Source: Folioceros fuciformis (taxonomy: Eukaryota). From it: a stretch of 64,000 nucleotides of DNA. Position numbers and translations under genes: made by a program. Location of the stretch: positions 469,049 through 533,048 of the forward strand of contig JBNGIO010006371.1 in assembly GCA_049999805.1 (NCBI GenBank), in the 5' to 3' direction. Of this stretch, positions 12,248 to 46,100 are shown in pieces (the first letter of the stretch is position 1; each line of letters opens with the position of its first letter). The notes beneath the pieces are model-generated. The model saw only the letters and a program-made list of their open reading frames with translations. It was not told the DNA's origin and did no database searches.

Positions 12248-14297
12248 ACTAAGTAACGCCCCCTTCCTTATGCAGTGTAAAAGGAAGCAACGTCCTCGAA
12301 TCTTGTCCATTCACTCCGCAGCGCTCCACTTACAGATCATTCACTCCCTCTCACATGACTCAGCACAAGGCTCCAAGTAGCCCCCCGTCCACTGACGACT
12401 CGTAGACCACCTCCTCCAGGTGCTGCTCTTTGTTCAAGATACTTATAAAAGAGTCTGGCGATCTACAACCCACTAGCTACTGCCCTACACTCAATCTAAC
12501 AAGCTTGCTCTTCAAGACCTCCACAACTATGTCTCAAGGCTAGAGGTCTCACTGTTTGCCTCTCTCTCTGTCTTTCTGTCTTTCTATCTCTCTGTGTATG
12601 TTCTTAAGGCCTTAGCACTGGCCTATTTATATTCCACATCTAAGCCATTGCTAAAGTTGGGAATGATACACACCACTCATCTCAGAATACTAGAGGTCAT
12701 TACAACTCCATCCTTCTTAAGAGGTTTTGCTTGGAACACACATCTTGTTTCCAAAGGCAGCAAGAAGCATACTTGCTTCTCCATCAAGACAACTCTAGAT
12801 TTAGCTTTCATCTTTCTACTTTTAACTTTCACCTTATTTCACTTGTGCCATTACTTTTCAAGACTTTGGTGTAAAGCTATGAAGGAAGGAGGAAAACAAT
12901 TCTATAAGTAGTTTAGCAAAAATAATATTTTTGAGCCTAATGGTCTGTTATCAAATTTTCTGAAAGATATTAGGATTGGGAAGGTACCTAGATATTTTTA
13001 TTTAAATTATTTTTTAAAATATTTATAATCCTTAGTATTTAAATACAAGACTTTACAATTAAGAAGAGTTAACCTGCTAGTTTTTTATTCTCATACGAAT
13101 GTACTTAGTTTCACCATTGAGCTAAAGCTCAACTCAGTCCTAGGAAACACTAAGGATAATGGTTTCATGGTTTAGTTGACAGAGAAAAGGAAAGAAAAAA
13201 AGTTATTTATAGCATATTCCAATTAACCTAGTCTATTTTTAAGAAAATAACAAAGCACGACTTAGCTGCTTTAAGCCGTAGATGTGCTTCCTCATCCACC
13301 TAGGACGAATAATGGGGTAGCCGATAATGCTGATAATCATGAGACTGGCTTGACCACCATTTGGCGTGCAACCAAGTCATAGGATTACCGGCAACGACTT
13401 TTCACTTACCGGGAGAAGCATGTCTTGTCTAGTGTTCTCCCGGTAATGTTGTCGAGCTTGGTTTGTCGGCATCAACAGAGCTGGATGGTGGAGACAGTAG
13501 AGAGTCTGGTAACTCTGCCTTGAGTTAAAAAAACCTACGGTGCAGTGAGATGTAAAATAACACCAATCTGTGGCTCTCTTGGTTTGTAGAGGAGCTTCGA
13601 GAGGAGCACAGATATGGCCAATCTCAGCTCCTTGTTGCTTGGAGCGTGTCTCCCAGCCTCGGTGCGGCTCAAAGACGCGGCTCGCTGGAGACAGGTGCAT
13701 GGATGTGGCTCATGGAAACGTGCCCAACATTTGATGAGCAGACTAACCCTGTTCTCCAGTGGCATTGCACTGCTTTCTCGCCAGCAAGTTTGCTGCAGAC
13801 TGGTGAGCGAAGTGTAGTCGAGTACAGTCAGTGCGCCTTACGCGGGATGACAAGGAGGAGGATATTTGACGTAAGGGTAGCCAGCGTTGGACAGAGGGAT
13901 TGTATTCACATCGTGAATGACTTTGGTTGAGGCGGGATGGCACTCCGTTAGTCTCCTGCAGAGTGAGAAAAGAAGTGTCCGAGAGCAGACCGATTACGTC
14001 GAGTGTGGCAGGAGGATTTGCAGATTGAAGACAAAGGAATTAGATTGAGGACAGTGGAACACAGGAGCCCTTGACAAGAGCGATTTTATTCACATCTTAC
14101 AAGTTTACAAGGCAATGAAGAATTCAGGTGCGAATCTTGAGAACGCGTCTCGCTGATCAGTCATCACGGCAATTGGTACCTGCCAGTTGAGAACTGTTCC
14201 GGATCCTCCTAGCAGAGAAAATTGGCAGAGACAAGGCCTCCTGCGCACGCAATCTGCATCTGTACACACAAACACCGCCAGCTTGGAAAGGGAGCGC

Positions 14298-15134
14298 TCA
14301 CTGCTGGATGCGGCGCTTGGCGTCCTCGGCGGTGTTTTGCGCGTTCCGGGACAAGTCGTCCAGGTTAGACTTGACACTGGAGCCGGCCTGGGACGCCTTG
14401 TTCTGCACCTCCTGGCCAGCGTTGGTGATGCTGTCCTTGGCTTGGTCCAGCCCGCCCTTCACCTGGTCCTTGAGGCCCTCAGCCTGCTTGCCCAGCCCGG
14501 ACGCGTTGCTCTGCGCCTCAGACTTGAGGCCCTCGGCGTGGCTCTGGCCCTGAGACAGCGCATCGTCGGTGCGGGAGCGCAGCTCCTGACCCGCGCCCTG
14601 CGCCTGATTCTTGGCCTCCCCAGACTTGCCTTGCACGAAATCACTCGCCTGCTGTGCCGCTCCCTTCACCTGGCCCTTGAGGCCCTCGGCCTGCTCTCCC
14701 AGCCCGGACGCGTTCCTCTGCGCCTCGGACTTGAGGCCCTCGGCCTGGCTCTGTCCCTGCGACAGCACGTCGTCGGTGCGGGAGCGCAGCTCCTGCCCCG
14801 CGCCCTGCGCCTGGTTCTTGGCCTCACCAGACTTGCCTTGCACGAAATCGCTCGCCTGCTGCGCCGCTCCCTTCACCTTGTCGCTCACATTTCCGACCGC
14901 GTCCTGCGCCTTGTCGAGAATGCCGCTCGGATCGTCCTCGCAGCGCACCAGCACGGTCGGCGCCCGGCGAGCGGCGGGGCCAGCCCCCCGCTGCCGCAAC
15001 CGCAGCCCCGCCAGACTCGCGCTCGAACTCTGCAGCCGCGCGCTTCCGCTGGCGGTCACCGCGGGCGAGCGCACCGACAATGCGGACGGGGCGGCGACAG
15101 CGGACGCCATTGCTGCCATACTCGTAGCGGCCAT
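14298..15134 (-). CDS. LEA-like hydrophilic protein with predicted chloroplast transit peptide (278 aa, intronless)
   Basis: Ala/Ser/Arg-rich N-terminus ending VLVRC-E. The mature part is rich in A/Q/K/G/D/E, has no Trp, and contains a 69-aa tandem duplication. Confidence 0.8.
   Translation of the reverse strand: MAATSMAAMASAVAAPSALSVRSPAVTASGSARLQSSSASLAGLRLRQRGAGPAARRAPTVLVRCEDDPSGILDKAQDAVGNVSDKVKGAAQQASDFVQGKSGEAKNQAQGAGQELRSRTDDVLSQGQSQAEGLKSEAQRNASGLGEQAEGLKGQVKGAAQQASDFVQGKSGEAKNQAQGAGQELRSRTDDALSQGQSHAEGLKSEAQSNASGLGKQAEGLKDQVKGGLDQAKDSITNAGQEVQNKASQAGSSVKSNLDDLSRNAQNTAEDAKRRIQQ
14455..14878. repeat. 207-bp coding tandem duplication in the LEA-like gene
   Basis: GACTTGCCTTGCACGAAA occurs at 14623 and 14830; the protein unit VKGAAQQASDFVQGKSGEAKNQAQGAGQELRSRTDD... 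occurs twice. Confidence 0.92.
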
Positions 15135-17216
15135 ATCTGGGAACGAAGAAATGTGCGAGACGGACACGCCTTGTCGCAGCGAGAGCAGCACTGAAGCCTC
15201 AACCGGAGGCTGAAGGAGACAGAAGAAATTGTTCGAGTGCTGAAGCCGAAGCCGAAGCCGAATGCGAAGCTGAAGGAGACAGAAGAGAACGCTCGAGACC
15301 TGAAGGACCTGGGATGCCTGAACTGCCGCGGGAACGGCTTATCTACCCCGCCCGAGAGCTGATAACGGGTTGGGAGTGAAAAGCCAAGTAGGGAGGGGAC
15401 AAGTGCCATATTGTCGTGGCCGGCTCTCATTGCCCCTCGTGTCACCTCGCCTCTCTGCCCTCCATGCATGCATCTGCCGCTGGGCTGCCCTCTCGCGCCT
15501 GCCTTTGGACCAGCTCCAGGGATGCATAGTACTCTTGCCTTTCGTTTGTGCGGTGTTCAATCCATGGCAGACACGCAGCAAACTGGCCCAGACATCGCGG
15601 GCCTGGGGACACACTTAATTTGCTGAATCCAGTTCTAAGGTTTCAGTTTAACATGAGCATGAACTCATGCTATGACCATTTTGCTTATGGCATGCAGTAT
15701 GCCATATATAGCTCGTAAATTGCACCGGAGATGTTTTGAACTTCATGTAGTCCATGTTTTGAACTTCATGCACCCCATGTTTCGAACATCAAATTGTAAC
15801 TTGCAAGGGCAGCTAAGGTGGAGATTGAAGATCTTCCCTACTGTTGGGAGGTACAAGACCCACCGCGTGGCTTGTTCAACACTTGAAAGTTTTCATCCTA
15901 AGGATTACATGCCCCTATCTCTAGATTTGGCATTATTCCATGGAATAGGATGTTAGGCTTAGTGTTAGGAGAAGGCAAGAATGTGCACTTCCCCACATAC
16001 TTTTGGAAGGAGATGGATAAGAAGCTAGCTACCTCCTCCTACAACAACTGTAAAACTAACTTTTGGGCTTACTTATGGCACACAAAATACTAGTATGCAT
16101 TTAAGAAAGTTGATGATCTTCATGATGATAATGAATCAAACAGGCTTCAAGTAGTGTAGGACAATGGAAAGCCAAGATCTAGAGAGGTCAGAGTTATACT
16201 TTAATGTGAAAGAGCTTGCTATTTGCACATAAGTAATAGTTGTCTTCTGTGATTCATTTGAACATGAAGACGGATTTGGACAAATCTATGAGGAACTTCA
16301 TCACATTGTAGGCGTCCCTTGCTTCAGGTTTGCTGCCCATTTAAGTGAGGACATCTGTGCCATTGTGAGACAACACTTATTTGTTAGTGTAACAAAGAGG
16401 AAGATATACTTCAAGCATGTGGAGCAAGTAGGATTGAAAGCACAAGCTTGTGATTATGAACATTATCATGTATTGGTCGGGTAGAGCGTGGATGAGATGC
16501 AACCAGTGGCCTGGGTTTCACAACACCATTGCGAATGTCCACCTTCATGGATTGGATATGGTACATAGAGAGAAAGTCGTTGGCAAGGGGATCCAAGGGA
16601 ATGAAATGTGATTTGGATTGGAAATTGGATGGATGTATAAGCTCACTTGGACAAGAAACAAAAATGAGATACAGAGAAACATGTCACTAAAATTGAACAT
16701 CAATCTCGTAGACAACAAGACATTGGACTTCTATGTGGCCAAGGCCGATGAAGATATTTGGATGTTTGTGGACGAGATTTCTAAAAAGTGGGAATGCAAG
16801 TAGTTCCCAAAGCAAGTTGAAACAACTTGGGCTTTAGTTGCAAAGCAAGCAAAGACCCATGACGGGTGCATTAACTAGAGACCTCGGTCATTGTAGAAGT
16901 GAAGGAGTCAGAAATTCCCATTAGAGTATAAAAGAGGTTTAGGGTGTTAATATTTTATTATACTTTAAAAACTTAAGGGCATTAGTTCTAGTGAGCACCC
17001 TCACCGTTCATAATTTATTGTACCTTAGAAACTTAAGTTGATCCGTCAAAGTGTATAAGCACATAATGCTCACACGGTATGTGAAACGGGCCAGTGATCA
17101 ATACTTCCTGCCACCGACATCCAGGGCATATATAAACCCGCCCTTAGCCTCCGCTTGCCTACACGACAATAATAATGACGGACCATTTAAGGGGATACGA
17201 CATCACCTTCCTCATC

Positions 17217-18550
17217 TTATGATTTCCGCGCTTCGAGGACATGCAGGACAAGGCCAATATCTAGGATGTCCAGTCTGGTGAAGCCCGCTTCGGCGAAGAG
17301 CTGCCGCCACTGCCATTCTTCCCGCTCCCGGCCGCCCTCCGAGTGTGCGATCATGACGAGATCCATTTCTTCTGCCAGCTTCGCTCGAACGCTGAAGTTG
17401 TTGTTGTTTGGCTCCAAAATGAATTCCATCACAACGAGCTTGCCGTCATCTGGCAAAGCTTTGTGGCAGTTCTTCAAGATGTGGATGCACTTCTCATCGT
17501 CCCAGTCATGGAGAACAAACTGCACACACCATACCACAGAACACCTGCGTGTCGGAGTAAGAAAGGGTTTAGGCAATGTAAAAAGCGAGCTGTGGAAGGC
17601 AGTGAAGAGGTAGCGAGCTAGCTACCTTCATGAAAATAGCCTCGGAATGAGGGACGCTTTCGAACATATCCCCTCCGATATGTTGGACTCCTGCACACCA
17701 CAGCACTCACCAGGATTGTTAGGGAACTTGTACCACTTGGAGATCGTTGTTCTGGCCAGCGAGTGAAATTTATCATTGCACGGGAGCGGAGCTAGGTGTA
17801 AGAAGCGTGTGTACCAGGGATCTCTGGTGCTGAAGCTACAACAGGAGGCAAATCGAAATTGATACCACGAAGGTGAGGGTAGCGCGGCAGAATGATAGAC
17901 AGGGATGTTCCTAACCCTCCTCCAACATCCGTGAGACTTTCCTTCACGTCCTTGAACAAGGAATCACAATTGTTCAGTGCGGAGGACAGCATAACCCGAG
18001 AACCAGCCTCCATGGCCTGGTGAAACAGCTTCTGGTGCGCAGGCTCCTCGGACACATGCTCCCATACGTTCTTGGCATGCGTCAGACTGTAGGCGTATTC
18101 GCCTGTCAAGACAGAACGATGGAGATTCTTCCATGGTGCCTGGAAATGAGAATCGAGCTGCATTATAATCACTGGAGAAAAGTTGGCGTTGCCCTTGGAC
18201 ACGAGGAGCTTTGACACTGTATTCAGACCATAGCGTAAAGCCTGTCTCCCATCTCCGCTGGAAACACGGGCATCAGGAGCTGGCGTAGCAGAGAAAACTC
18301 CCGCGGACACCAGCACTCGGAGAATCCGCGCTAAGAATCCCGCACTCGGCTTCTTCCCATCCCTCGCCTCGTCGCCTGTGATCTCGTTCAGAATTTCGTC
18401 GCAAGACAACGGTCTATCAGCCTCAGCTAGTATGTCTGGTACCCGCAGCAGTGTGGCAGCCTTCAGTGCTGCCGGCTGTACAAACTGGAAGGTAAGCTCC
18501 AGAAGGCGGACCTGTCCTGCAATCGAGACGTCAGGACTTTCTTCATCCAT
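17217..18550 (-). CDS. Class II SAM-dependent O-methyltransferase (COMT-like), 3 exons
   Basis: Exons 18550-17815, 17690-17626, 17519-17217. Motifs LTDVGGGLG, INFDLPPVV, GGDMFES, K|FVLHDWDDEKC, GGRER, plus an N-terminal dimerisation domain. Confidence 0.93.
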
Positions 18551-19628
18551 GGCAGCAGAGCTGCAAGCTTACGAATTGCAAGACATGTAGACGAGAGAGG
18601 GCATAAGGTTTTCCATGGAACGTATGTGTGCTTCGGACAATCCTACAACAAGATGGCCCACAAAGCCCATTGTGTCTTCATGCTATTGGTCCCTTGACTT
18701 CCCCCCCAAGTTGGCTTGACCCTCCCAGCCAAGTTCGCCGGCAGGACCATGGCTTTCCCTTCTAGAAGACGCTCCCGAATTATATACCTTTATCGCAAAA
18801 AATCTGTTCTTTAGGCATGTGAGATGGGAGCTGAAGCTTCACCAGGGACCGCTCCTGGCCTATCCTGCAGAAAGCTCACTTCGTACACTAACGCAGGATA
18901 GTACGCCGGTGAGGTTCCCTATGTAAGGAGATGATGATCTATCGCTGGCAAATGTGTGGATGCAAAGTAATACAACTGGTCAGTACTTGGAGCTACATAG
19001 CATATCAGCCATAGCCACACTTCTAATACTCCCGCTCGACCTATCTAAATCAATCCTTCAAGCCAAGCATCTTGCAAAACTTAGCATTCAATCCTTTAAT
19101 CAAAACATTAGCCGGGCCTATCTTGTTGTGGACAATACTCTAGCTTCACCTCTGATTTCAAGATGCTGATGCCGTAACTATGCCCACCGTTCCCGGAAAA
19201 GGCATCCTCGAGAATTGCAAGGTAGGACAATCGCTCAGCTCTATCCGGGTCCGCTTCCTCGTGTGAAGGGTTTTTTTATAGAGCACGAATGTCAGGCTGC
19301 GTGGGAGAAGACGAACACGTACATATATATGTGAAGGTCGGTGACAAATTAAGAATACGCTGTCATTTTATTTTGTGAGGCACCTAAAGGCGGCGCCGTT
19401 CAAATTTGTTGAAACAGGGGACACTGGAGATGGGACGTGACACGCGGAGTGTTGGTAGATTTCCTTTGCCCGTGCTCTGATGCAGATGCTGTCCTTGAGA
19501 CAGACAGGCGAGGATAGGGTGGGGTACGTCATACCTGGGCAAGCGAACGAATTTTGCGGACTGTTGGGGGCAACCAATCCATCCATCCTGAAAACATTGT
19601 GCCGTGAGTTGGAATTGCACCTGCGATC

Positions 19629-20945
19629 ATGGCTCGACCAGCCTCCAACTTGGTGAGGGAATTGACAAGCGTTGGCAAGCCGTTCAAGTCCGTGGCGGAC
19701 CTGAGTGACCTGGTGAGGAGGGTGAAGAGTGCCAAAATCGTGATGCTCGGAGAGGCGTCTCATGGCACACACGAATTCTACGAGTGGCGGCGTCTCATCT
19801 CACAGGAACTCATGGAAAAGCATGGATTCAACTTCATCGCTGTTTGAGGGAGATTGGCCTCCATCGCAACGCGTGAATCGATTCATCCACATGGAGCTGG
19901 ATCAAGATCTCAACCTCCATACCAAGGACCCGCTTTTCAAGCACAGAGTGCATGAAGTGCTTCGTTGTTTCAAGTAGGTTGTGGTTTTCTGTAGTACGGG
20001 CTACGGTACGTGTGCCGCGTTTTCTGCTTCTGCCTTTGTTGGACCCTTACAGATTCGCGAAGAAGGCCGGGTTTCATTTGGCGCTTCATGATCGGAAAAG
20101 GATGTCTCTGGAACAATGATCAACTTGAAGGCTGGCTTTGGATTTGCAGGAGATGGCCGACATGGATGTGGTGTAATTTAGAGGTGGAGGAGTTGGTGAG
20201 GTGGATGAGGATACACAATCTGAAAGTAGACAATCCTGGGACGCGAGTGGGATTCTACGGCTTGGATGTCTATTCCCTGTTCGAATCCATCAAGGAAGCT
20301 TTGACGCAACTGGAGAAGGTGGATCCAGGCTTGGCCAGGAAGGCGAAGCTGCGGTACGCCTGCTTCGATCCTTTTCTGGAGGACGAGAACGAGTACGCCA
20401 GGTCGTTGATTTTCTTCCCAGAGGGATGCAGGGAGGGGGTGGTGAGGACGTTGCAGGAGCTGCTGCAGAAGCGGCTCGACAGCATCGAGCCTGCCAAGCA
20501 CGGCGCCTTCTTTGATGCCGTACAGAATGCTCGGATTGTGCAGAACGCGGAGAGCTACTACCGGTGCATGATTCAGGCTGACGACAAGTCGTGGAATGTG
20601 CACTCAACTCATGGAGATCTTGAGATCTTGCCTGTGCCGCCGGGTCGGCCTGGGAGCTGGGAAGCAGAGTTTCATGCCGTAGCGATGAAGATGGAGTCGG
20701 AGGCTGTGGCCTTCTCATTTGAGCCTAACAAGCACGAGAAAGGGCCGTTGGTGGAGGTGAGGGGTAATAGGGCCATCGGTGTGGTGTACAATCCTGTACA
20801 GGAGAAGTGGGGCAATTATGTGCCCACATCCTTGGCCAACAGATACAATGCAATGCTGTTTGTGGATGTGACAGTCGCTCTAGAACCTCTACCTGCGGAA
20901 CCCGAGCCCAAAGAGATACCTGAGGCCTATCCTACGGGCTTCTAG
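19629..20945 (+). pseudogene. Erythromycin-esterase (EreA/EreB-like) family gene, bacterial type, one intron; disrupted as assembled
   Basis: Motifs IVMLGEASHGTHEFYEWR, GFNFIAV/EGDWP, RWPTWMWCN, GFYGLDVYSL, ARIVQNAESYYR, SWNV, RAIGVVYNP, NYVPTSLANRY. GT-AG intron 19974-20149. An extra T at 19843-19845 breaks AVEGDW, and the segment expected between SWNV and VPPGRPGSWE is missing. Confidence 0.8.
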
Positions 20946-21644
20946 GGGCCTCAAGACTAGCTAACTTGGTAGCGAGCCTGACTTGGTAGCGAACTCTTGC
21001 TAGATTTCGCTTTGCTTGACCCACGCGACGTCATGGAACATTGAGAACAGCTGGACTTGGTTCCAAACCCTAGCTGTCGCTGAAAGAGGAGTATGGATTT
21101 CATGAGGGTTCTGAGCTGTTCAGTATCCTGGCTTTAAGAATCGAACTCAAACAGGACGTTGATGGAGATCCAAGTCTTCGGACGAGTCTTGTGGGCCTCG
21201 ATGTGCAAGCCTTTAGAGGATGATCTAACTGCATCGGTGTCCGAGCCAATAGAAAATGATCGAACTCCATCAATGTCCGATCATTTAGAAGACAGCACTT
21301 CCCACCTTCAAGAGGTCCTGGTAAAAAATTGGTGGTTACGCACGCAAAAATGAAAACTTTGTACATGGTCAAGAGCCTTCCTCAACAACCAGAATAATCC
21401 TAAATACTTCACTACGGAGATATATACTTAGGATGTAGGGAAATAAAAAAATCCATTGCAATTTACTGATAGTTAAGCATAGGCATCTGGCTCGGGATAC
21501 CAGCCAACCCCTGCATACTAGCATGAAGGTGGTCAGGCCGGAGGTGACGACGGTCAAATGCAAGTCACACGAGTCCTTGCGGCGAGCCCATCGACCAAAC
21601 CAGATACAAACGCTGCATTTTTCTTCTTCTGTACATGCGACGCC

Positions 21645-23821
21645 TCAAAGCCAGATATCTGACGTGCAGTCGCCCCCTGGATACCGAACCTCGTGAGCCA
21701 GAGAAGGACCATGGGGTTCCTTGGAGAAGTCAACGAAGAAGTCCTGGTTGATGGAGAGACCACCCTTCTCTGTGTCCACATCGAGCTGTAGCATGTGGGA
21801 GCCACCTTTCACCAGGCTAGGGTAAAACTGATTATCCCAGGCACTGAACAAGGAGTTTGTCACATACAGCCGCTTGCCGTCCAGACTGAGCTGGATCATC
21901 TGAGGCCCACCCCGGAGTTTATTTCCCTGCATCCGAAGACATTCAGCCCTGACACGTTAAGAAAAAAACCAGCATTCTAAACTAATAAACTTGACGGACA
22001 ACTACTGTGGACCTCGTAAAAAATGGAATGGCATCCACTGGGAGGTGCAAGAGGGTTCTCATTCAAACCTGAACCTCCGGGACGGTGGACTGCCAGAGCT
22101 CCCCGTTTTCCTTCTCCACAAACACGTCACCGCCCTTCTGGAGGAGCCCACCGACCCAGATCTGTCCGGCCAAGAACGGTTTGGATGGGTTTTCAATGTT
22201 GTATTGGCGGATATCACCATGAAGCCAGTCAACCAAATACAGATAACGGTCATCCAGTGAGATGACAAAATCGGTGATGAGAGCGGGCATCTCCGGGAGC
22301 AGCCAGTTTGTAACCTTTAAGTTGGGAATCGACAGAACAACCTGTGACAGTAGCAGAAGACAGGACGAGGAATGTAAGTCTCGACAATGCTATAACCGTG
22401 ACTGGCCCAGTACAAGTTGCTAACTCTATGCTGACAGTAAAGCACATCATGCCTCTTTAACTTCTGGCCAGCGTCATACCTCATGATCCCAAACACCATC
22501 ACCCTTGTGGAAAAACCTGATCAAGTTACCGCACAATGCCCCCGCCACAAACCCCGTGTCTTTGCTCGGGTCGTGCAGAAAGCGCACCTATTCACAAACG
22601 AAGAGCTCAGGACTACCACAAACCAACACCCGGGAAAAAAAAAACTTGTGCTTAGCTTTCAGCAAGTTCGAAGAAACATACCTCCAATGGTATGAGCCCA
22701 GGGAGTCCCAAATCCAAGGTTTGCCTAAGGGTCCCTTCAGGCCAGTCGTAAACAAACAAATGTCTCCCGTACAGGCCTTCAGCAACATGTGCAGGGTTGA
22801 ATCCCTTAACAAAGGCTGAGGGTGCGCCCCAGGAAGAGCTGATCATCGTCTTGTGACGAGGCTGATACCAGAAGTCGTAGCCAAAAGCTGGACTGTGTCC
22901 TGGCTTCTCCCACCTGCCAGAAAACATAATAAGACATCCCACATTGAGAATAGGGTTGAAGCAGAGGCAAATCTCCTCACGGCATGCGAACGCAGTCGCC
23001 CTACCTTCCTTTCACGTTGAACTTGGAGTCCAGCAACAGAAACCCTGCACCTTCTGCCTTACCCTCCGGATCTCCAAGGCAAGACACCAAGATATCCCCC
23101 GATCCCAAGCAATGGGAAGTATGGGGAAACGCCAGGCCTGTCTTGCTAGCAATATCTTCCGGTTCAACAATCTTGTGCACAACAGGCGCTTTGGGATCCT
23201 TTGTATCAATAATATAAATCCGCGAAGAGCTAATAAAAAAAAAAAAACAAGCATTCCAAATTTAGCCTCCGAACCTGTCAGACCAGACAAACCGTGGCAA
23301 AACCAGCAACGAGTGTCCTTCCACGTACACGAGGCTAGGCAGCACCAAGAACCGCCTTTGAGCAGAGGCGTCGTCGTAGCAAGAACTGCACGCGTTCCAC
23401 CCCGTATGATGCAGCTCGTCATTCAAGTACTTCACGGGAGTTCGATGGATAACCTGCGAATAAGTCGCCGACTCGGGATCGGCATCTACCGTCGCCAGGT
23501 AATCCGGCTGCTCTATACCCGTCCCTACGAAGAGGAACAAAGGCATCCAAAATATTAAGAAAACACCTTCCCCCGCCCCGGCACTGGCCCGGTCCTGGCC
23601 ATTCACCACTTGCTCCCAACCCGACTTCTCCCACACTCGAGTCACTCACTCACGCACGCACTCACTCACTCACCGGCGTACACAGCCGTGACGTAGAGTA
23701 TGGTCTCCCGCGGCCCGCGCATAGCGTCCAAGGGAGTCGCATACCCGGGCCCGGCATCTGGGCAGCAGCTGCCGGGATGTCCCTCCTCAACCTTCCCATT
23801 TGACCCGCCGTTCTCCGCCAT
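21645..23821 (-). CDS. SBP1: Selenium-binding protein SBP56 / methanethiol oxidase homolog, 7 exons
   Basis: Exons 23821-23674, 23524-23329, 23229-23005, 22913-22682, 22587-22480, 22341-22069, 21926-21645. Motifs [60 protein letters not shown]. Confidence 0.95.
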
Positions 23822-24687: not shown

Positions 24688-25295
24688 ATGTGTATCTGTA
24701 TTGTGTGAATCTATGAATCTGTCCTTTAGCTTACCATCACAGATTTGGAGGTTAAGAATTAGAGGTTGATCTAGCTTATCATGATATATTTGGAGATTAA
24801 GAAGTAGGGGTTGATCTAGCTTACCATCACAAATATGGAGATTAAGAAGTAGAGGTTGATCTAGCAATGTGTATCTCTGTTGTGTGAATTTGCCCTTCAG
24901 CTTACCATCACATATTTGGGGATTAAGAAATAGAGGTTGATCTAGCAATGTGTATCTGTGTTGTGTGAATCTATCCTTCAGCTTACCATCACATATTTGT
25001 AGATTAAGAAGTAGAGGTTGATCTAGCGATGTGTATTTGTGTTGTGTGAATCTATCCTTCAGCTTATCATCACATATTTGTAGATTAAGAAGTAGAGGTT
25101 GATCTAGCGATGTGTATCTGTGTTGTGTGAATCTGTCCTTCAGCTCACCATCACATATTTGGAGATTCAGCTTACCATCACTTATTTGGAGATTAAGAAG
25201 TAGATGTTGATGTAACGATGTGTATCTGTGTTGTGTGAATTTGTCCTTTAGCTTACCGTCACATAATTGGGGATTAAGAAGTAGAGGTTGATCTA
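24688..25295. repeat. Minisatellite with 81-bp unit and 45-bp truncated variants
   Basis: The TCTAG anchor within GAGATTAAGAAGTAGAGGTTGATCTAG recurs at 24770, 24815, 24860, 24941, 25022, 25103 (spacings 45, 45, 81, 81, 81). Confidence 0.95.
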
Positions 25296-25305
25296 CAAGA
25301 CTGCA

Positions 25306-26126
25306 ATGGCAATAGGGGATGCCAACCCATACACTATGCACGTTCCTTCTTGGCTCCTACATTGTTTGTCCATTCGAAATAAGTTCTACCCCGTGGCACT
25401 TGAAAGTGAAGAAGGTTCTAAGGGCAAGAGGCAAACTGATCACAACGATGAAGAAGAGTCCGACAGCAAGAGGAGGGCCAGGCCTTGCAAGTACCATGAA
25501 CAAATAAACTTGAGAGATGCAATTTTGCAAAAGTTTTGTATCTCTTGCAACAAAGGACCACTTTGTAAAATTGGAGTTGAAATGAACCATGCCAACCACG
25601 AGATATTTCATATAAGGAGAAACAACTACAAGGCATGCATCAACTTGGAGGAGAATGCAGACTTACTTAAGGCTCATGACGTTGATCTATCACGGATCAA
25701 CACATTTCAAAATGGTTCTCTCATCGTCTACTTGTTGGCCTCACAGCCACCACCAGAGAGACAGAGTTTAACATCTGGGACATTCCATAGTTGCAAAATA
25801 TGTAAGAGGGCCATGAAGAAGAAACCTGATGAAGACATAAAGCCTTTGTTCTGTAGCATCAATTGCAAAGTTGAAGCTAGCATGAAGAAAAGGATAAAGG
25901 CTCAGATTGCCTTCAGAAGAAATATGCAAGGGGATTTCAATTTTAGAAGGAGGTGAGTATTGGTTTTGTTGTATCTTGTCCCTTGTGCTCCTTTTGGGTT
26001 CTTCAGTAATGCTCATTGATTGGTTTCATGGTGGAGTATGATTCAATGTGATTTTCATACTAATGTTTGCATGATCCTTGCAGGCCTCGAAAAGGAAAGC
26101 CTAGACAAGCGGTAATCAATAGGTAA
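25306..26126 (+). CDS. Divergent PLATZ zinc-dependent DNA-binding protein, 2 exons
   Basis: Exons 25306-25952 and 26084-26126. PSWL...CKYH...FCISC...LCKIG...HANHEIFHIRR, then CKIC...FCSINCK and a C-terminal RRRPRKGKPRQA resembling the PLATZ RRKGxPxRA tail. Confidence 0.8.
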
Positions 26127-37720: not shown

Positions 37721-39330
37721 TTACCAAGTCGTCGAACTTATCGTATTATGAAACTTAGGTGAAGTTCCACAAGACTCGTCCCAGTTCCCCAGTCCTAGTC
37801 CTCCTCTGGCGGGAATGACAATATGTCCTGCCGAATAGTCTTGGTCTGGCTTCGGTGCTTCATCGAAGGTCTGGCGTTCCACCTCCACGCTGCCCCGCTT
37901 TTGACAACCACCCAAAAAGGCGTGCAAAACTACGCCATCAGGCTCGAGAGGCATAGCCCTCGCCTCCTCTAGTGCTTCATCTAACTGGCCTGCACGACCC
38001 AGGAGATCAACAAGCATGTGTACTGCTCCAGGGTGGGTGGGATTCCATCTTCCCTGCTCATGGCCTTGAACTACCCTTGCACTTGGCTCACGAGGCCCAC
38101 ATGCCTGGATACTGCGTCAGGACAACCAGGAACGTAATGGCATCTAACTGTAAGTGAGCCCTGTTGGATCATCCTGTGAACCGAGGCAAGACCATTTCAA
38201 TGACTTCCCTCGGCTTCAAGCCCTTGCAAGGTCTTTGATCTGGGCATCAATCTGCATTTCTGCATCCAAAGCTGCTGAACCGGAACAGGATTGCAGGAGG
38301 AAAATGAAGGGGACAGAACCAGGTGCAGCCAAGTCTTTATGGTGCTCGGTGAAAAAGACCAAGGGCTTCCTCACTCACACCCTGCTGGGAGTACCCTGCG
38401 GTCATGGAATTCCACGTCTCGACATCTTTCTGGTCACGTCCGTCAAACACGCTCTGGGCATGCCGTAGGCTGCCACACCCACAATCCCATCAGCCTCCCG
38501 TCCTTGTTCTCGGACGTGGACATGAGGGTGCTTCAGAAGCCATTCTCTGAAACCGCGGTGCCTATACCTGCACATGTTTGCTGGGGGCACACAACATGTT
38601 GCAGAATCAAGTACCACGGTGCCGTCCCTTTCCATTGCACTGTAAAGATGAAGGGCTTCCTGACTTCTGCCCCGTCGGCACCATCCGGTTATCATGGCAT
38701 TCCAGACTACCACATCGTTTTGATTTAAGTCTTCCAAACACAAGTTGGGCATCTCTAGGCTGGCACACTTTGCGTGCACGTTTATCAAACTGTTGGCCAC
38801 AACATGTAAGCGTGAAGCCCTTGTTCTCTTTACCTATGCAAGAAGCTGCTTCCCCTTTTCCAAATCTAGGTTACCGACACTTGCACGCGCTTGCAATAGA
38901 CAAACATTTGTCACACAACCAAGTCCAACAATGTCGTCTGGCCGCATGGCACTAAAAAGAGAAGACTAAGAGCTTCCTGACGCACGCCATGCAAAATATG
39001 CTGCTTTCAGTGTATTCCACGTCAGTACAGCTTTTTCACCAACTCCATCAGACAACCTCTTTCCATCGTCTAGGCTTCCATGTTCATCAAGCTGTTGGCC
39101 ACAATCCCATCAGCTTGCAGCCCTTTCTCTTCTATCCGGGAAAGAGGTTGCTTCCGCTTCAGCAAAGCCGGAATCCCCGTCGTTGCGCATGCCTGCGGGA
39201 GACACGGATGTCCTCAGCTTTTGGGTCAACGATGCCGCCTCCTTGCATACTGCTATTGTAGGTGAAGGGGCCACTGCTGTGAGTGTCCTATTTTGTCTTA
39301 AGACCCCGTGCTGTAGGAAACAAGCAATAT
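37721..39330 (-). pseudogene. Degenerate PLS-class PPR pseudogene, third member of the tandem array
   Basis: Frameshifted fragments ANSLINVHAKCASLE, DVVVWNAMITGW and MLVDLLGRAGQLDEALEEARAMPLEPD, homologous to the neighbouring PPR genes. Confidence 0.85.
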
Positions 39331-39428
39331 CAAGGCGTCTCCCACTTTCGAGAGATTTTGGCACAAAGCGAGCAGCGTCACTTACACTCAACAGAATTAG
39401 TTGTTCCGGTTCTTGTAGATGCTTGCGT

Positions 39429-42400
39429 CTACTCAAATTGTGGGAGATACCCTTCTTCCATCATCTTGGGAAGCAGCTGCTTTAGACCCGCATATATTTC
39501 GTCACTCTGAGAAAGCTTTCTATCCCCGACCACAAAATTATGGACCGATCCGTCCATGTCTGTCCACCAGCTTCGGCCTGGCTGCTTCCACGCCCCGATT
39601 CTTTTTCTTCTCTCCTGCATCTTATGTGCCTCTTCCCACATCTGGGCACCCGTATATATGTTGGACATTGATACATAAGCTGCAGCATCTTTTTGGTCTA
39701 GCTTCATTGCTTCATTAAATGCATACCGTCCCACCTCTACGTTTCTCCACTTCCGACATGCACCCAATAGAGTGTGCCAAACTGCGTCAATAGGCTCCAT
39801 AGGCATTGTACTCACCAATCCTAGTGCCTCATCCAGTTGCCCCGCACGACCCAGCAAATCTATCATGCATGCATAGTGTTCCGCAGTAGGAGTTATGCCA
39901 TATTCTCTGCCCATAATCTCGAAGTACTCTTGCCCTTCGCTCACTAGACCACCATGACTGCACACTGTTAGCACACTTAAAAAGGTGATGCCATTTGGCT
40001 GCATGCCATCTTCTTTCATTCTGCTGACCAAATTAAAGACCACTTCTGTTTCTGCCTGACGACAGTATCCTGCAATCAGTGCATTCCAAGCAACGTCATC
40101 TCGTTTGGGCAATGCATCAAACACCTTCTGTGCATCCACCATGCTCCCGGCTTTTGCGTACATATTCATCAAACTGTTGGCAACAGTCAAATCCGTTTGC
40201 AACCCTTGTTGTTCAATCTCTGCATGAAGCTGCCTTCCAACACGCAGAGCTGCCACACCTGCACAGGCCTGAAGAAGGCACACAAATGTCACAGCGTTAG
40301 GTGAGGAGATCCCTTGTTCTTGCATAGCATCGTAGAGATCAAGAGCTTCCTGACCCTTGCCCTGTTGGGAGTATCCCGATATCATGGCATTCCATGTCAC
40401 CACATCTTTCTTTGTGAGGCCGTCAAACAAGCTCTGAGCATCCTCGAGGCTGCCACATTTTGCATACATGTTTATCAAACTGTTTGTCACGAACTCATCC
40501 CCTTGCAGCCCTTGTTCCCTTATCTGATCATGAATCTGCTTGCCCATCTCCAAAGCCTGGGAACCCACACTCGCACACGCCTGCAAGAGGCACACAAATG
40601 TCACTGAATCCGGCACAGTGGAGCCTTCTTCTTGCATAGCACTGAAGAGATGGAGAGCTTCCTGGCCCATGCCCTGCTGGGAATAGCCTAATAGCATAAC
40701 ATTCCATACCACCACATCTTTGTGAACAAGTCTATCAAACACGCTTTGGGCACCTAGTAGGTTGCCACACTTCACATACATGTTGATCAGGCTGCAACCT
40801 ATAAACATATCAGCCTGAAGCCCCTGTTCTTCAATCTCGGCATGAACCTGCTTCCCCATCTCCAAAGCCGGGGCACCCATAATTGCACATGCCTGGAGGA
40901 GGCGAACAAACGTCACAGCATTGGGTGCAGAGGTGCCTCCTTCTTTCATGAGACTGTAAACGGTAAGGGCTTCCTGACCCGTGCATTGCTGGGTGTAACC
41001 TGCTATCATGGAATTCCATGTCACGAGATCCTTCTGATCAAGTTCATCAAACACACTCCGTGCATCCTTCATGCTCCCGCACTTCACGTACATGTTTACC
41101 AGCCTGTCACCCACAGCCGCATCGACCTGGAGTCCACGTTCTCTAATTTCAGCATGCAGCTGCTTCCCCGTCTCCAATGCTGTAGTACCCACAATTGCAC
41201 ACGCCTGTAGGAGGCACATAAAAGTAACACAGTCAGATGCTGCAACGCCTTCCTCTTGCATAATACTGTAGAGATGAAGGGCTTCCCGACCCTTGCCCTG
41301 CTGAGTATACCCTGCTATCAGAGCAGTCCAAGTCACAACATCTTTTTGACTTAGAGCATCAAATATGCTCTGAGCATCCTCTAAGCTGCCACACTTTGCA
41401 TACATGTTTATGAGATTGTTGCCCAAACTCACATCAGCTTGGAGTCCTTGCTCTCCAATCTGTGCATGCAGCTGCTTCCCCGTTTCCAATGCTCGACGCC
41501 CAATACTTGCACATGCCTGAAGGAGGCAACCAAGTGTCACAGAATCAGGTGCAGTAGTGCCTTCTTCTTGCATGGCACAGTAAACACGAAGGGCTTCCTG
41601 ACCCATGCCCTGCTGGGAATATCCTGCTAACATGGCATTCCATGTAACCACATCCTTTTCACCAAGTCCATCGAACACGATCTGAGCATCCTGTAGGCTG
41701 CCACACTTTGCATACATGTTCACAAGGCTGCAACCAACAACCGCGTCGAATTTTATGCCTTTTTGTTTCATGTGTCGATGAAGCTGCTTTCCTGTCTCCA
41801 AAGCCGGAATACCCACACTTGCACAGGCCTGCAGGAGGCAAGCAAACGTCACAGAATCAGGCACAGCAAATCCTTCTTGTTGCATAGCATGGTAGAGGTC
41901 AAGGGCTTTCTGACCCATGCCCTGCTGGGAATAACCTGCGATTATGGCATTCCATGTCACTACATCCTTCTGACCGAGTCCATCAAACACTTTTTGAGCG
42001 TCTTCCAAGCTGCCACACTTAGCATACATGTCAACTAAACAGCTCCCAACAAACAAATCAGTGTCAAGCCCACCGGCCAACGCATCAGCATGCACCTGCT
42101 GTCCAGTTTTCAAGTCTGCTGCCCTTGCACAAGCCTGCAGGGATGCGACAAACAGATGACCATCTGGTTTCACCCTCGACCTGCGCATCTCATGATACAG
42201 TTGTAAGGCCTTCTTAGCCTGTCCGTTTTTAACATAACTGGAAATTATGGACGACCACATGAAGGCATCTGGGGTGGGAACCACGGAGAAAACATCCATC
42301 GCTTCTTTCAACCTGGCATGTGAAGCATACATCCGAAGAATGTGATTGCACAAGAATGTGTCCGACTCATACCCCTGCTTCAAGTTGAGAGCATGAACAC

Positions 42401-42746
42401 GGCGACCCAGAACCAAATCCCTCTTCACCACACAGTTTCTCAAGACTGTGTAAAGGAGAGACCGGGAAATACGACATTGTGTTTGCACCAGAACTCCCAG
42501 AGCCTCAACGGCCTTATTTAGCTGCCCCTCCCCACAAAGTTCCATCACGGTTTCAGCCGTCACGACCCCTTCGTACGCTGCCGTCCCGACAGAGTCAGTG
42601 TCGTCCCGCAGGCTCCAGTACGATGCAGGAGCACGACAACCGGTCTGGATATCAACAGCCAGCCAGGTGTGTGAAGCAGAAACAGGTGTGACGACCAGAG
42701 CTCTGGGCGGCAACCGTCTGCAGACGCTCTTTCCTCTTCCAGACAT
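39429..42746 (-). CDS. PLS-class PPR protein, E/E+ type with PGRSWWTD box; probable organellar RNA-editing specificity factor
   Basis: Intronless ~1105-aa ORF with P-L-S triplets, E motifs (HYACMIDLLGRAG, AAAYVSMSNIY), and an end at EEGYLPQFE with no HxE/CxxC deaminase core. Confidence 0.95.
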   Translation of the reverse strand: MSGRGKSVCRRLPPRALVVTPVSASHTWLAVDIQTGCRAPASYWSLRDDTDSVGTAAYEGVVTAETVMELCGEGQLNKAVEALGVLVQTQCRISRSLLYTVLRNCVVKRDLVLGRRVHALNLKQGYESDTFLCNHILRMYASHARLKEAMDVFSVVPTPDAFMWSSIISSYVKNGQAKKALQLYHEMRRSRVKPDGHLFVASLQACARAADLKTGQQVHADALAGGLDTDLFVGSCLVDMYAKCGSLEDAQKVFDGLGQKDVVTWNAIIAGYSQQGMGQKALDLYHAMQQEGFAVPDSVTFACLLQACASVGIPALETGKQLHRHMKQKGIKFDAVVGCSLVNMYAKCGSLQDAQIVFDGLGEKDVVTWNAMLAGYSQQGMGQEALRVYCAMQEEGTTAPDSVTLGCLLQACASIGRRALETGKQLHAQIGEQGLQADVSLGNNLINMYAKCGSLEDAQSIFDALSQKDVVTWTALIAGYTQQGKGREALHLYSIMQEEGVAASDCVTFMCLLQACAIVGTTALETGKQLHAEIRERGLQVDAAVGDRLVNMYVKCGSMKDARSVFDELDQKDLVTWNSMIAGYTQQCTGQEALTVYSLMKEGGTSAPNAVTFVRLLQACAIMGAPALEMGKQVHAEIEEQGLQADMFIGCSLINMYVKCGNLLGAQSVFDRLVHKDVVVWNVMLLGYSQQGMGQEALHLFSAMQEEGSTVPDSVTFVCLLQACASVGSQALEMGKQIHDQIREQGLQGDEFVTNSLINMYAKCGSLEDAQSLFDGLTKKDVVTWNAMISGYSQQGKGQEALDLYDAMQEQGISSPNAVTFVCLLQACAGVAALRVGRQLHAEIEQQGLQTDLTVANSLMNMYAKAGSMVDAQKVFDALPKRDDVAWNALIAGYCRQAETEVVFNLVSRMKEDGMQPNGITFLSVLTVCSHGGLVSEGQEYFEIMGREYGITPTAEHYACMIDLLGRAGQLDEALGLVSTMPMEPIDAVWHTLLGACRKWRNVEVGRYAFNEAMKLDQKDAAAYVSMSNIYTGAQMWEEAHKMQERRKRIGAWKQPGRSWWTDMDGSVHNFVVGDRKLSQSDEIYAGLKQLLPKMMEEGYLPQFE

Positions 42747-43010
42747 GGCGTCCGACACTCTTAGCGTGGATTTTTCATGTGGGCCATGCTCATAGTCGTT
42801 ATGGGTGGTTGCTACTGCCTACATCGATGTGAATGAAATACGAGCTGCAACGGAGGAAATGACATGCTTTGGGCATCGAGGTTACCCTTCCCTCCCAGTG
42901 CTAGATCGCTGTGCACTGAAAAACTAGCTGCGAGGTTGGAGACGATATGACGTGAGAATTGACACTGATACAAGAGAATGGATCCGTGAATGTCTGGGAT
43001 TGAAGAGTAT

Positions 43011-43071
43011 GAATCCATGAATGAGACGAATCCATGAATGAGACGAATCCATGAATGAGACGAATCCATGA
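43011..43071. repeat. 17-bp tandem repeat GAATCCATGAATGAGAC x3.6
   Basis: Perfect copies at 43011, 43028 and 43045, partial at 43062. Confidence 0.95.
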
Positions 43072-43137
43072 CTAGTCTAACTTACGATACGACTTCGTGA
43101 TGTCTGTCCAACGACAAATGTGGCGAATACCCTTCTT

Positions 43138-46100
43138 TCAGTATCTTAGGAACTCCCCCCGTGTCAGCTTTGAACATACGGCTCCGGTCTCAGGATGCCT
43201 GCTATCGCCCACCGCAAAACTATGCACCAGCCCCTCCATGTCTGTCCACCAGCTCTGGCCTGGTTGCTTCCGAGCCCCGACCCCATTTCTCCTCACGTGC
43301 ATCTCCTCTGCCTCCTCCCACATTTGAGCACTAGTATATATGTTCGCCATCAATATGTAAGCTGCTGGGTCTTTTTCGTCTACCTTAACTGCTTCATGGA
43401 ATGCACGCAGTCCCACATCCACGTTGCTCCACTTTTGACAAGCACCCAATAACGCATGCCAAACAGCGTCATGAGGCTGCACAGGCATTGCCCTTGCCAT
43501 CGCCAGAGCCTTGTCAAGTTGCCCTGCACGACCCAGCAGATCCACCATGCATGAGTAGTGCTTAGGAGTGGGAGTGATGCCATGAAGTCTGCTCATGTCC
43601 TCGAAGTACTCCCGTCCCTTGTCTACTAGACCCGCATGACTGCATACAGCCATCACACTCAAGAAGGTGACGCCGTCTGGCCGTATGCCATCTTCTTTCA
43701 TTCGGTGAATCAAGCCAAAGACCAATTCACTGTCCCCTTGACGGGTGTATCCTGCAATCAGCGCATTCCAGGCGATGATATCTCGCTCGGGCAAAGTGTC
43801 AAACACCTCCTGTGCATCAACCATGCTTCCAGCTTTTGCATACATGTTTATCAAAGATTTGCTAACAGTTGGATCATCCTGCAACCCTTGTGCTTTTATC
43901 TGTGAATGAATCTGCCTTCCGGCGTGCAAAGCTCCCACAACTGCACATGCTTGCAGCAAGCATACAAATGTGACAGAATTAGGTCGGACATTGCTTTCTC
44001 GTTGCATAGCACTGAAAAGACAAAAGGCGTCCTGAGCCATCCCTTGCTCGGAATATCCTCCTATCATAGCATTCCACGTTACAACATCTTTCACAGCAAC
44101 TCCTTCAAACACTTTCCGGGCATCATGTAGGCTGCCACACTTTCCATACATGCTAATCAAACTGTTGGCAACAAACATATCAGCCAGAAACCCGTGTTCT
44201 TTCATCTGCATATGCAGTTGCTTCCCCGTCTCAAGGGCGGGGGCACCGACACTTGCACATGCTTGCAGAAGGCACACAAATGTCACAGAGTCAGGGGCAG
44301 CACACTCTTCTTTTTGCATAGCTGTGTACAGTTGAAGGGCTTCCAAACCCATGCCCTGCTGGGAATATCCAGCTATCAGAGCAGTCCATGTGACTACATC
44401 TTTCTGACTCAGACCATCGAACACAGCCTGAGCGTCCTCTAGGCTCCCACATTTTGCGTACATGTGTACCAGGCTGCAACCTACAGACCGTTCAATCCTA
44501 ATTCCTTGAAGCTGTGCATGAAGTTGCCTCCCCTTCTCCAGAGCTGGCTTACCCACACTCGCACAAGCTTGCAGGAGGCACACAAACGTGAGAGAATCAG
44601 GCGGAGCAATGTTCTCTAGTTGCATGGAATCATAGAGATCAAGAGCTTCCTGACCCTTGCCCTGTCGGGTGTAGCATGCTATCATAGTTGTCCATGTCAC
44701 TACATCCTTTTGAGCAGTTCCATCAAATATGCCCTGGGCATCCTCCAGGCTGCCACACTTCGCATACATGTTTAACACATTGTTAATGACAAGCATATCA
44801 GCTTCAAGCCGTTGTTCTTTAATCTGTGAATGTAGCTGCTTCCCCTTCTCTAAAGCCAGGGTACCCACACATGCACATGCCTGCAGGAGCCACACAAAAG
44901 TCATAGTGGAGGGGACCGTTGTGCCTTCTTCTTGCATAGCACTGTAGATATGAAGGGCTTCATTACCCATGTCATGTTGGGCATAGCTAGATATCAGACT
45001 TGTCCAAGTCGTAACATCTTTTTGACCAAGTTCATCAAACAGGGTTTGTGCATCCTCCAGGCTACCACACTGTCCGTACATGTTTATCAGGGCATTCGCT
45101 ACAAACAATGACGCTTGAAGCCCTTGTTCCTTAATCTGTGAATGTAACTGCTTTCCCTTTTCCAAGGCCATGGAACCTACTGTTGCACATGCCTGCAGGA
45201 GGCACACAAATGTCAGAGCATCTGGCAATGAGATACCTTCTCGCTCCATCGCACTGTGAAGATGAAGGGCTTCCTCACTCATGCCGTTCTGAGAATATCC
45301 TATTATCATTGCAGTCCATGTGACCACAGTCTTTTGAGGAAGCCTGTCAAACACGCCCTGAGCATCGTGTAGGCTGCCGCACTTTGCATACATATTCACC
45401 AGGCTGCAGCCTACAACTGCATTAAGCTCAAGTCCTTTATCTTCAACTTGCTTATGAAGCTGCCTTCCCTTCTCCAAAGCTGCAGTACCCACGCTTGCAC
45501 ATGCCTGCAGCAGGCATGCAAATGTCACCCCATCTGGTGCAGCAATGCCTTCTTCCACCATCTCACCGTGAAGATGAAGTGCTTCCTGACCCAAGCCCTT
45601 CTGAGAGTACCCCGATATCATGGCATTCCATGTCACGACATCCTTTTGAGGAAGTCCATCAAACACTTTTCGAGCGCCAGCCAAGTCACCAGACCTTGCA
45701 TACATGTCAACCAAGCAACAAGACACAAACACATCGGGCTCAACCCCACTAGCCAACACATCAGCGTGTACCTGCTGCCCAGTTTTTAAGTCTGCTGCCC
45801 TTGAACAAGCCTGCAGGGCTGCTATGAACACACGGCCATCTGGCTTCACACTTGACCCGCGCATTTGATGATACAGTTGTATAGCCTGCTGGGCTTGACC
45901 GTGTTTGACATGCACAGATATTATAGAAGACCACATAAATGCATCTGGTTTGGCTACCATGGTGAACACATCCATCGCTTCTTGCAACCTGGAATGAGAA
46001 GCATACATCCGCAGCATGTGGTTGCACAAGAAAGTGTCAGACCCGTGCCCCTGCTTCACGGTGAGAGCATGTACACGTCGACTCAAAACCAGATCATTCT

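Follow-up and report, generated by a model that had tools for sequence, protein, structure and literature searches.

The coding sequence at 19629-20945 (+ strand) raises the question of how a gene of the erythromycin-esterase (Ere) family came to stand in plant DNA, and whether it still encodes an enzyme. We analysed the window, that is, the whole 64-kb stretch of DNA that contains it, and read the features of the locus from the sequence letters, the open reading frames, Pfam searches and tblastn; the coding sequence itself was read from the window sequence and from homology. Overall, we hold with good confidence that the locus, in the nuclear DNA of a non-seed land plant, is an Ere-superfamily hydrolase gene that has recently become a pseudogene and would descend from an old bacterium-to-plant transfer.

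Family membership is carried by exon 2. Its translation (20151-20942, 264 aa) matches PF05139 with an E-value of 3.4e-58 and 198.5 bits against a cut-off of 26.4, a score far above chance; the match consists of two stretches, the best of which spans profile positions 42-196 of 358. This bears out the initial annotation, which had placed an Ere-family gene here, and the motifs GEASHGTHEFY, RWPTWMW, GFYGLDVYSL and RAIGVVY that it listed are all readable directly in the sequence. The two short pieces of exon 1, searched alone against Pfam, matched no family, and both align to homologues by tblastn. When four full-length relatives were used as tblastn queries, a single Ere-like locus was found in the window. 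The parts of the locus and its neighbours are given in Table 1.

Table 1. Features of the Ere-like locus and of the genes around it, in window positions
Feature	Position	Strand	Description
Exon 1, first part	19629-19844	+	72 codons, ATG to FNFIAV; carries GEASHGTHE; tblastn to P0001 residues 1-72
TTT run with one extra T	19843-19845	+	+1 frameshift; DNA alignment against L002
Exon 1, second part	19846-19973	+	+1 frame; EGDWPPSQRVNRFIHMELDQ...VLRCF and the first two bases of K; homologous to P0001 EGDWPPSQRVNRFI
Intron-like insert	19974-20149	+	176 nt, GTAGGT...TTTGCAG, phase 2; homology restored on removal
Exon 2	20150-20945	+	RWPTWMW ... YPTGF, stop TAG at 20943-20945; open frame, about 74 residues short
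Deletion scar	20592-20621	+	L002 alignment and contigs of organisms B and C
O-methyltransferase exon	17792-18568	-	PF08100 (plant-type dimerisation) E 2.7e-15; PF00891 (methyltransferase) E 2.9e-16
56-kDa selenium-binding protein SBP56, two exons	21645-22389	-	PF05694 E 2.7e-49 and E 3.8e-28
PLATZ	25285-25953	+	
Two tandem PLS-class PPR genes with E motif	39429-42815 and 43138-46473	-	
F-box/KIB1-4 propeller	48300-49451	-	
LSM protein	58638-59567	+	

The relatives of the window copy point to bacteria. Among the candidate proteins, 7369 of 7901 scored E<=0.001. The best protein match was a 35-sequence cluster, with 78% identity across the initial 58% of exon 2 and 70-71% overall (the latter over about 364 columns); among its members are KAH9537736.1 of Sphagnum magellanicum, which lies on a record of 18.3 Mb, and S. 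jensenii fragments. The next matches were the singletons P0002 (61%) and P0003 (59%), followed by bacteria at 58% or less that are named Bdellovibrionia, Bdellovibrionales, Bacteriovorax and similar; a search started from P0002 gave the same ranking picture. No named plant other than Sphagnum appeared among the best 120 matches of either protein search. Against species-representative genomes, the best named matches of the Sphagnum protein P0001 were a Bacteriovorax MAG (53%), Bdellovibrio bacteriovorus (52%) and Oligoflexia/Bacteriovoracaceae MAGs, and the PF05139 clusters shown in an Atlas search with P0001 were all dominated by bacteria, which is a lead and does not show that plants lack the family. 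A metagenome scan returned at least 80 loci; among the 80 listed, one (L002) was plant-like and none was a window-type orthologue.

Maximum-likelihood phylogeny, the check that the initial annotation had proposed, placed the window/Sphagnum group among bacterial rows labelled Bdellovibrionota. The trees were quick IQ-TREE searches with SH-aLRT support only, rooted at the midpoint or on a chosen outgroup, and they held no eukaryotic Ere sequences beyond the window/Sphagnum group, none having surfaced in the searches. The 144-row tree comprised the window copy (read through its breaks), P0001, P0121, P0002, P0003, P0004-P0060, L001, L003 and L081-L160; left out were L002, which has stops, L004-L080 and P0061-P0120. 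In this tree the window copy joined the pair of P0001 and P0121 with a support of 83, the addition of P0002 gave 99 (starred) and that of P0003 gave 86. The whole group lay inside an 84-row clade (100, starred) whose 20 named rows were 19 Bdellovibrionota and one "uncultured proteobacterium", and the opposite side held the other 60 rows (Bacteroidota, Gemmatimonadota and others). A 57-row tree under a site-heterogeneous mixture model recovered the same three groupings with supports of 94, 99 (starred) and 99 (starred). The clades enclosing the plant sequences received 97 and 100 in the 144-row tree and 96 and 100 in the 57-row tree, all starred.

A bacterial origin is the best reading of the plant clade in these trees, and the donor label Bdellovibrionota depends on the few named rows. 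The initial annotation had described a bacterial-type gene acquired horizontally, and the plant neighbours, an insert that is absent in the closest homologue and the nesting among bacteria all agree with it. The event is, however, not private to the window genome, as an intact homologue is deposited from Sphagnum (KAH9537736.1) and two related organisms have the locus. Therefore, the transfer is older than the window species. The family would have entered the plant lineage from bacteria, the nearest named ones being Bdellovibrionota, and the transferred gene would then have become a normal nuclear gene.

Could the gene instead be an old eukaryotic or plant gene that was inherited vertically and lost by most plants, with no bacterial transfer at all? 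The window and Sphagnum copies may belong to different plant lineages, and no protein is more than 78% identical to the window copy despite the Sphagnum proteomes in the database. Moreover, the neighbouring PPR, searched against 50% representatives, has its best named match at 48% identity in the lycophyte Diphasiastrum, followed by the ferns Ceratopteris and Adiantum, and the sister sequences P0002 and P0003 lie on contigs of about 1.74 kb, a size that would fit mRNA. Against vertical inheritance, the plant clade sits several nodes deep among Bdellovibrionota-labelled rows within starred clades, the intact Sphagnum copy is intronless, and no other named eukaryote appears among the best 120 matches of either search, in a database where about one quarter of the proteins carry names. 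We consider this explanation rather unlikely and retain a bacterial transfer followed by pseudogenisation in the window species.

Two lesions break the window copy. The frame opened by the ATG at 19629 reads ...HGFNFIAV and then meets a TGA at 19845-19847, while the expected continuation is encoded one base further on. In the DNA alignment, the window has one base more than L002 in the T run, and this extra base has no counterpart in the Logan contigs of organism B (gap at 19842) or organism C (gap at 19843). Due to this frameshift, translation from the ATG ends after 72 codons, and the N-terminal GE motif, which lies upstream of it, is out of frame with the rest. The "AVEGDWP" that the initial annotation gave as one motif does not exist as such in the DNA, which reads FNFIAV-TGA, with EGDWPP one base later owing to the extra T. 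Its wording "frame-corrected" was its only hint of a frame break.

The second lesion, on which the initial annotation was silent, leaves exon 2 short of a catalytic motif. By tblastn, the window matches the 458-aa P0001 over residues 1-274 and 346-458 only. The missing stretch (P0001 about 272-345: RDKHMMETL...WAHNTHIGDY...VIAS; RDKHMMETLNLLLEHYGPESKGILWAHNTHIGDYRATS...GTVIAS) is kept by every full-length relative compared, and the window reads SWNVHSTHGDLEILPVPP in its place. The L002 DNA alignment and the contigs of related organisms resolve the loss into two nearby deletions, which removed about 224 nt in total at 20601-20622: about 14 nt were lost after 20601, and about 210 nt, the WAHNTHIGDY codons among them, were lost before 20622. 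Between them, the 20 nt at 20602-20621 are what is left of the MMETL codons, in another frame. A MAFFT alignment paired a window "HSTH" with the HNTH of the relatives, and we rejected it as an H-N-x-H motif; it consists of a lineage-specific HST triplet and a scar codon, and the pairing is a coincidence, because the L002 alignment and the loose ends of the relatives show the scar. Consequently, no uninterrupted frame over the full domain was found after splicing, with the TGA at 19845-19847 and about 74 residues gone.

The consequences for catalysis can be read against the residues that PMC4580454 gives as critical in Ere proteins, namely E43, T45, H46, G143, D145, H290, N291 and H293. The window still encodes the N-terminal GE-x-(S/T)-H-G motif (LGEASHGTHEFY, at about 19746-19781, corresponding to E43/T45/H46), as well as the central G-x-D and YYR residues (GFYGLDVYSL and NAESYYR in exon 2). 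The H-N-x-H motif (WAHNTHIGDY) is deleted, and the intact Sphagnum protein carries GEASHG, YGLDVY and AHNTHIGD. Ere enzymes need both the GE-x-SHG and the H-N-x-H motif, and a product made by read-through or from a downstream start would lack one or the other. Since the frameshift cuts off the GE motif and the H-N-x-H motif is deleted, the locus makes no active esterase; judged from its sequence, the window copy cannot encode an active enzyme. The detoxification role that the initial annotation had considered thus falls away for this copy, a pseudogene that cannot detoxify anything.

It is conceivable that the open exon 2 still gives rise to a truncated product, and the locus might even make a shortened, non-catalytic protein with a new role, made either from a downstream start or from just exon 2. 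The 264 codons of exon 2 form an open frame free of further stops, the homology upstream and downstream stays in one frame across both deletions combined, and the contigs of one sequencing run (X3, described below) span only 19572-21138, which resembles transcript limits if the library is RNA. However, the library kind of X3 is a guess, and an in-frame outcome of the deletions has a one-in-three chance anyway. The ATG frame stops after 72 codons, the alternative frame is without the GE-x-SHG motif, and the residues gone from exon 2 include the H-N-x-H of WAHNTHIGDY. We accord a shortened protein with a new role little probability and continue to regard the locus as a pseudogene.

To judge whether the lesions are real and recent, we turn to Logan contigs of four runs, aligned to 19300-21200. 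X1 and X3, from two studies, are labelled with the organism of the window; the window may have been assembled from X1 itself, and the library type of X3 (RNA?) is guessed. The X1 contigs (19701-20414 and 20423-21200) and the X3 contigs from the other study (19572-20088 and 20446-21138) show 0 differences to the window, and both the extra T and the deletion junction are present in each of the two runs. The lesions are therefore not assembly errors. Organism B (X4) is represented by one 6866-nt contig, about 92% identical, with a stretch of 244 letters in place of 20 in the window. Organism C (X5), also about 92% identical, has loose ends that read RDRHMMETLN after 20601 and IASHQWGG before 20622, and thus keeps the segment that the window has lost. 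Because organisms B and C are without the extra base and have the deleted stretch, the lesions are recent.

The sister organisms seem to retain the unbroken state, as far as their contigs can be read. The copies called intact in organisms B and C are seen in pieces of contigs only. Organism B shows two more 1-nt gaps (at 19860 and 19863), and the 224 nt that it has in excess are not divisible by three; the copy of this organism may thus be damaged too.

These contigs also bear on the view that the gene is intact and functional, with the frameshift and the missing segment being errors of sequencing or assembly. The extra base does lie in a TTT run, a typical place for indel errors of long reads, and exon 2 stays open, but the X1 and X3 contigs from two studies under one label repeat both lesions with 0 differences, and a two-part deletion of about 224 nt is atypical of assembly errors. 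We see scarcely any chance that the gene is whole. Under the preferred reading of a young pseudogene, the window species would have taken the 1-nt insertion and the two neighbouring losses, of about 14 nt and about 210 nt, after its lineage had gained a single spliceosomal intron at the K/R junction of SFK-RWPTWMW.

The evidence for that intron starts from the junction itself. Cutting out 19974-20149 (AA/GTAGGT...TTTGCAG/G) joins CFK to RWPTWMW, as in the homologues; the initial annotation had likewise described a GT-AG intron whose removal restores ...CFK-RWPTWMW. The insert has stops in all three frames and a GC content of 0.49, and it occurs only once in the window. Neither the Sphagnum-type L002, in the DNA alignment, nor P0001 and P0131 have it; the latter two are contiguous ORFs whose contigs measure 3442 and 1539 nt. 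Its size differs in organisms B and C by 33 nt and 16 nt, respectively, neither of which is a multiple of three. Organism B has at least 14 differences in 122 intron bases, while the exon bases of this piece show at most 29 in 452. This pattern fits a true spliceosomal intron that would have been gained after the bacterial context was lost. No spliced form was found among the runs on record as RNA, none of which contains the locus; the X3 contigs, RNA by guess only, pass unspliced through both borders of the insert.

The genomic setting is that of plant chromosomal DNA. The initial annotation had noted ordinary plant genes on the flanks, and the O-methyltransferase and SBP56 on either side, both supported by Pfam, agree with this. 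The Atlas neighbours of the PPR are Streptophyta, the same locus is found in related organisms, and the Sphagnum homologue also lies on a large record. Rfam and tRNA scans of the window found nothing. In a database that includes the Sphagnum proteomes, the O-methyltransferase exon had no protein match at E<=1e-20, a strict cut-off, and an exact look-up of 7 candidate PPR proteins gave no hit. The window is gene-dense with a GC content of 49.7%, compared with 41% in the flanking sequence of L002, a Sphagnum-like contig. Together with the 48% identity of the best PPR match and the ceiling of 78% for matches to the Ere copy, these results make us lean slightly towards a non-seed plant lineage other than Sphagnum. 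Contamination, against which the initial annotation had argued from the intron, is very unlikely. Although the nearest named non-plant relatives are bacteria (47-53% identity) and the family is overwhelmingly bacterial, we give next to no credence to a bacterial contaminant or a chimeric assembly join. On one flank a plant gene is reached within about 1 kb, on the other within 0.7 kb, and one X1 contig extends into exon 1 from a point about 982 nt before 19300. A live bacterial gene would not carry a GT-AG insert, nor a frameshift and a deletion. Moreover, the same locus recurs at about 92% identity in related organisms, a homologue lies on the 18.3-Mb Sphagnum chromosome record, and the GC3 of the locus is 0.69 against 0.63 in the neighbouring SBP56 exon.

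The nearest relative of the window copy is the Sphagnum Ere-like protein of the P0001/P0121 cluster, deposited as "hypothetical protein CY35_16G067900". The two belong to the same family and share identical blocks (RVGFYGLDVYSLFESI, KHGAFFDAVQNARIV and MIQADDKSWNV). The Sphagnum gene is an intact, intronless single ORF of 458 aa that keeps WAHNTHIGDY, whereas the window copy has the intron, the frameshift and the deletion. By sequence comparison, the two copies may be paralogues within a single genus, or else orthologues from separate lineages. The "erythromycin esterase family proteins" of Bdellovibrionota (Bacteriovorax, Bdellovibrio bacteriovorus and Oligoflexia MAGs) belong to the same subfamily; they are colinear throughout at 47-55% identity and enclose the plant clade in the trees, and their genes are bacterial and intronless. 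A fusion to a PF00156 phosphoribosyltransferase occurs in 11 of the best 120 relatives of P0002, whereas the plant genes are without it.

What the intact members do can be suggested in general terms only by their relatives of solved structure. A profile of the plant and Bdellovibrionota proteins, searched against the PDB, matched 2rad/3b55 (E 4.7e-17), 2qgm (E 3.7e-13) and EreC (E 0.0039), and a PDB search with exon 2 alone gave 0 matches. The best solved relatives are thus Bcr135 and Bcr136 of Bacillus cereus (PDB 2rad/3b55 and 2qgm), deposited as "succinoglycan biosynthesis protein"; GEATHG-HE and VW-HN-HI align with the profile, and the relationship is distant. Morar and colleagues are said to have found in 2012 that Bcr135 and Bcr136 are not macrolide esterases, and the fold family therefore does not fix the substrate. 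EreA, EreB and EreC (EreC: PDB 6xcq) share the Pfam family and the N-terminal GE-x-(S/T)HG region with the plant genes, but the match of EreC to the profile is marginal, covering 58 residues, and the H-N-x-H residues are absent from the window copy. Since the plant proteins are far from the characterised macrolide esterases, the family name says little about the substrate, and nothing in these comparisons indicates macrolide activity. The intact relatives, such as the 458-aa Sphagnum protein, are probably cytosolic hydrolases of some ester or lactone.

Comparable transfers have been described in other eukaryotes. An Ere-family gene in the nuclear genome of the haptophyte Chrysochromulina tobin was attributed to bacteria (PMC4580454), and an Ere-family gene of bacterial origin was described in the dinoflagellate Fugacium kawagutii (PMC11453091). 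As described there, these are events of the same kind as that of the window family, in different hosts, and the two genes are presented as intact and expressed, whereas the window copy is broken. Both transfers are probably independent of the plant event. In the literature, we found no paper linking "erythromycin esterase" with Sphagnum, hornwort or Selaginella, and the supplementary lists of transfer surveys may contain the family; for land plants or Physcomitrella, titles and abstracts gave only papers on algal transgene markers.

The family in plants is already represented by the deposited Sphagnum protein, and the window copy is a young pseudogene. Going further, we tentatively propose, as a possibility that we would not favour over others, that a Bdellovibrionota-like predatory bacterium was the source of a single old transfer into an early lineage of bryophytes or land plants, from which a small plant family arose that survives in at least two lineages. 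In Sphagnum this family would be intact, intronless and multi-copy, and in the window lineage it would have gained the intron. Its eukaryotic members would also include P0002 and P0003, and the window might capture the loss of the family under way in one species while sister species keep it. If the window lineage is not Sphagnum, the copies would be orthologues, or the family would span two plant lineages and the transfer would be old; if it is Sphagnum, the window and Sphagnum genes would be old paralogues.

Genes of bacterial origin form a known class in early-diverging land plants, for which surveys give dozens to hundreds of families, and one more transferred family adds detail, not a new principle. 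What this family offers is a natural series that runs from the bacterial relatives through an intact, intronless plant copy and an intron-gained copy to a freshly broken one, and this series could serve to time intron gain and gene loss after transfer. Additionally, the analysis flags the intact Sphagnum protein as a putative hydrolase in a plant of a microbe-rich habitat.

The Sphagnum-type Ere gene was found to be multi-copy and partly decayed (DNA copy L002, positions 834-2199; proteins P0122-P0134). The L002 copy contains in-frame stops and at least two frame changes, and many members of the corresponding protein cluster are fragments of 138-171 aa. These fragments carry AHNTNIGDY or AHNSNIGDY in place of AHNTHIGDY, with Asn where the catalytic His stood.

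A further, more divergent Ere-like locus is present in the organism of the window, on contigs from two studies (sets X1 and X3). It is approximately 86% identical to the window over two short aligned pieces, 19723-19841 and 20814-20866, and has a stretch of 1143 letters in place of 972 in the window; its loose contig ends read IEGEWPPSQN and VYKPNHDWIM.

The window also contains a tandem array of PLS-class PPR genes and several other genes. Both PPR genes of the pair reach only the very start of the DYW domain before the stop, which in gene 1 comes after ...EEGYLPQFE, and degenerate PPR motifs downstream of the pair mark a third copy. We observed that the F-box gene, whose architecture has been described mainly from flowering plants, is an odd neighbour for the PPR genes, since the best matches of these among named sequences come from a lycophyte and ferns. 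The O-methyltransferase exon had no protein match at E<=1e-20 in a collection of 5.8 billion proteins; therefore, either this O-methyltransferase is divergent or lineage-specific, or sequences from the host's lineage are scarce in that collection. The 345-codon ORF, which is matched by an ORF of equal length on the opposite strand, could encode a LEA-like protein.

Other features of the window
Feature	Position	Strand	Remarks
ORF	14157-15194	+	same length as the ORF below
ORF	14298-15335	-	345 codons; similarity to helical-repeat families (apolipoprotein-like, YtxH) is weak and below threshold
O-methyltransferase exon	17792-18565	-	clear Pfam match, E about 1e-16 per domain
PPR tandem array	38300-46476	-	PLS class
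Third PPR copy	~38300-39400	-	degenerate
PPR gene 1	39429-42818	-	PLS class; 1129 codons, E motif
PPR gene 2	43138-46476	-	PLS class; 1112 codons, E motif
F-box protein with KIB1-4/DUF295-type beta-propeller	48300-49451	-	PF03478, 30.8 bits (cut-off 27.4)

Among the 120 best bacterial relatives of P0002, the Ere sequence sister to the grouping of the window's Ere copy with Sphagnum, 11 are fusions of approximately 650 aa between Ere and a phosphoribosyltransferase domain (PF00156; P0141, P0144, P0146, P0154-P0156, P0159, P0167, P0168, P0170 and P0173), and one more, P0161, joins Ere to peptidase S9/hydrolase domains. Such fusions may hint at the real biochemical context of the family.
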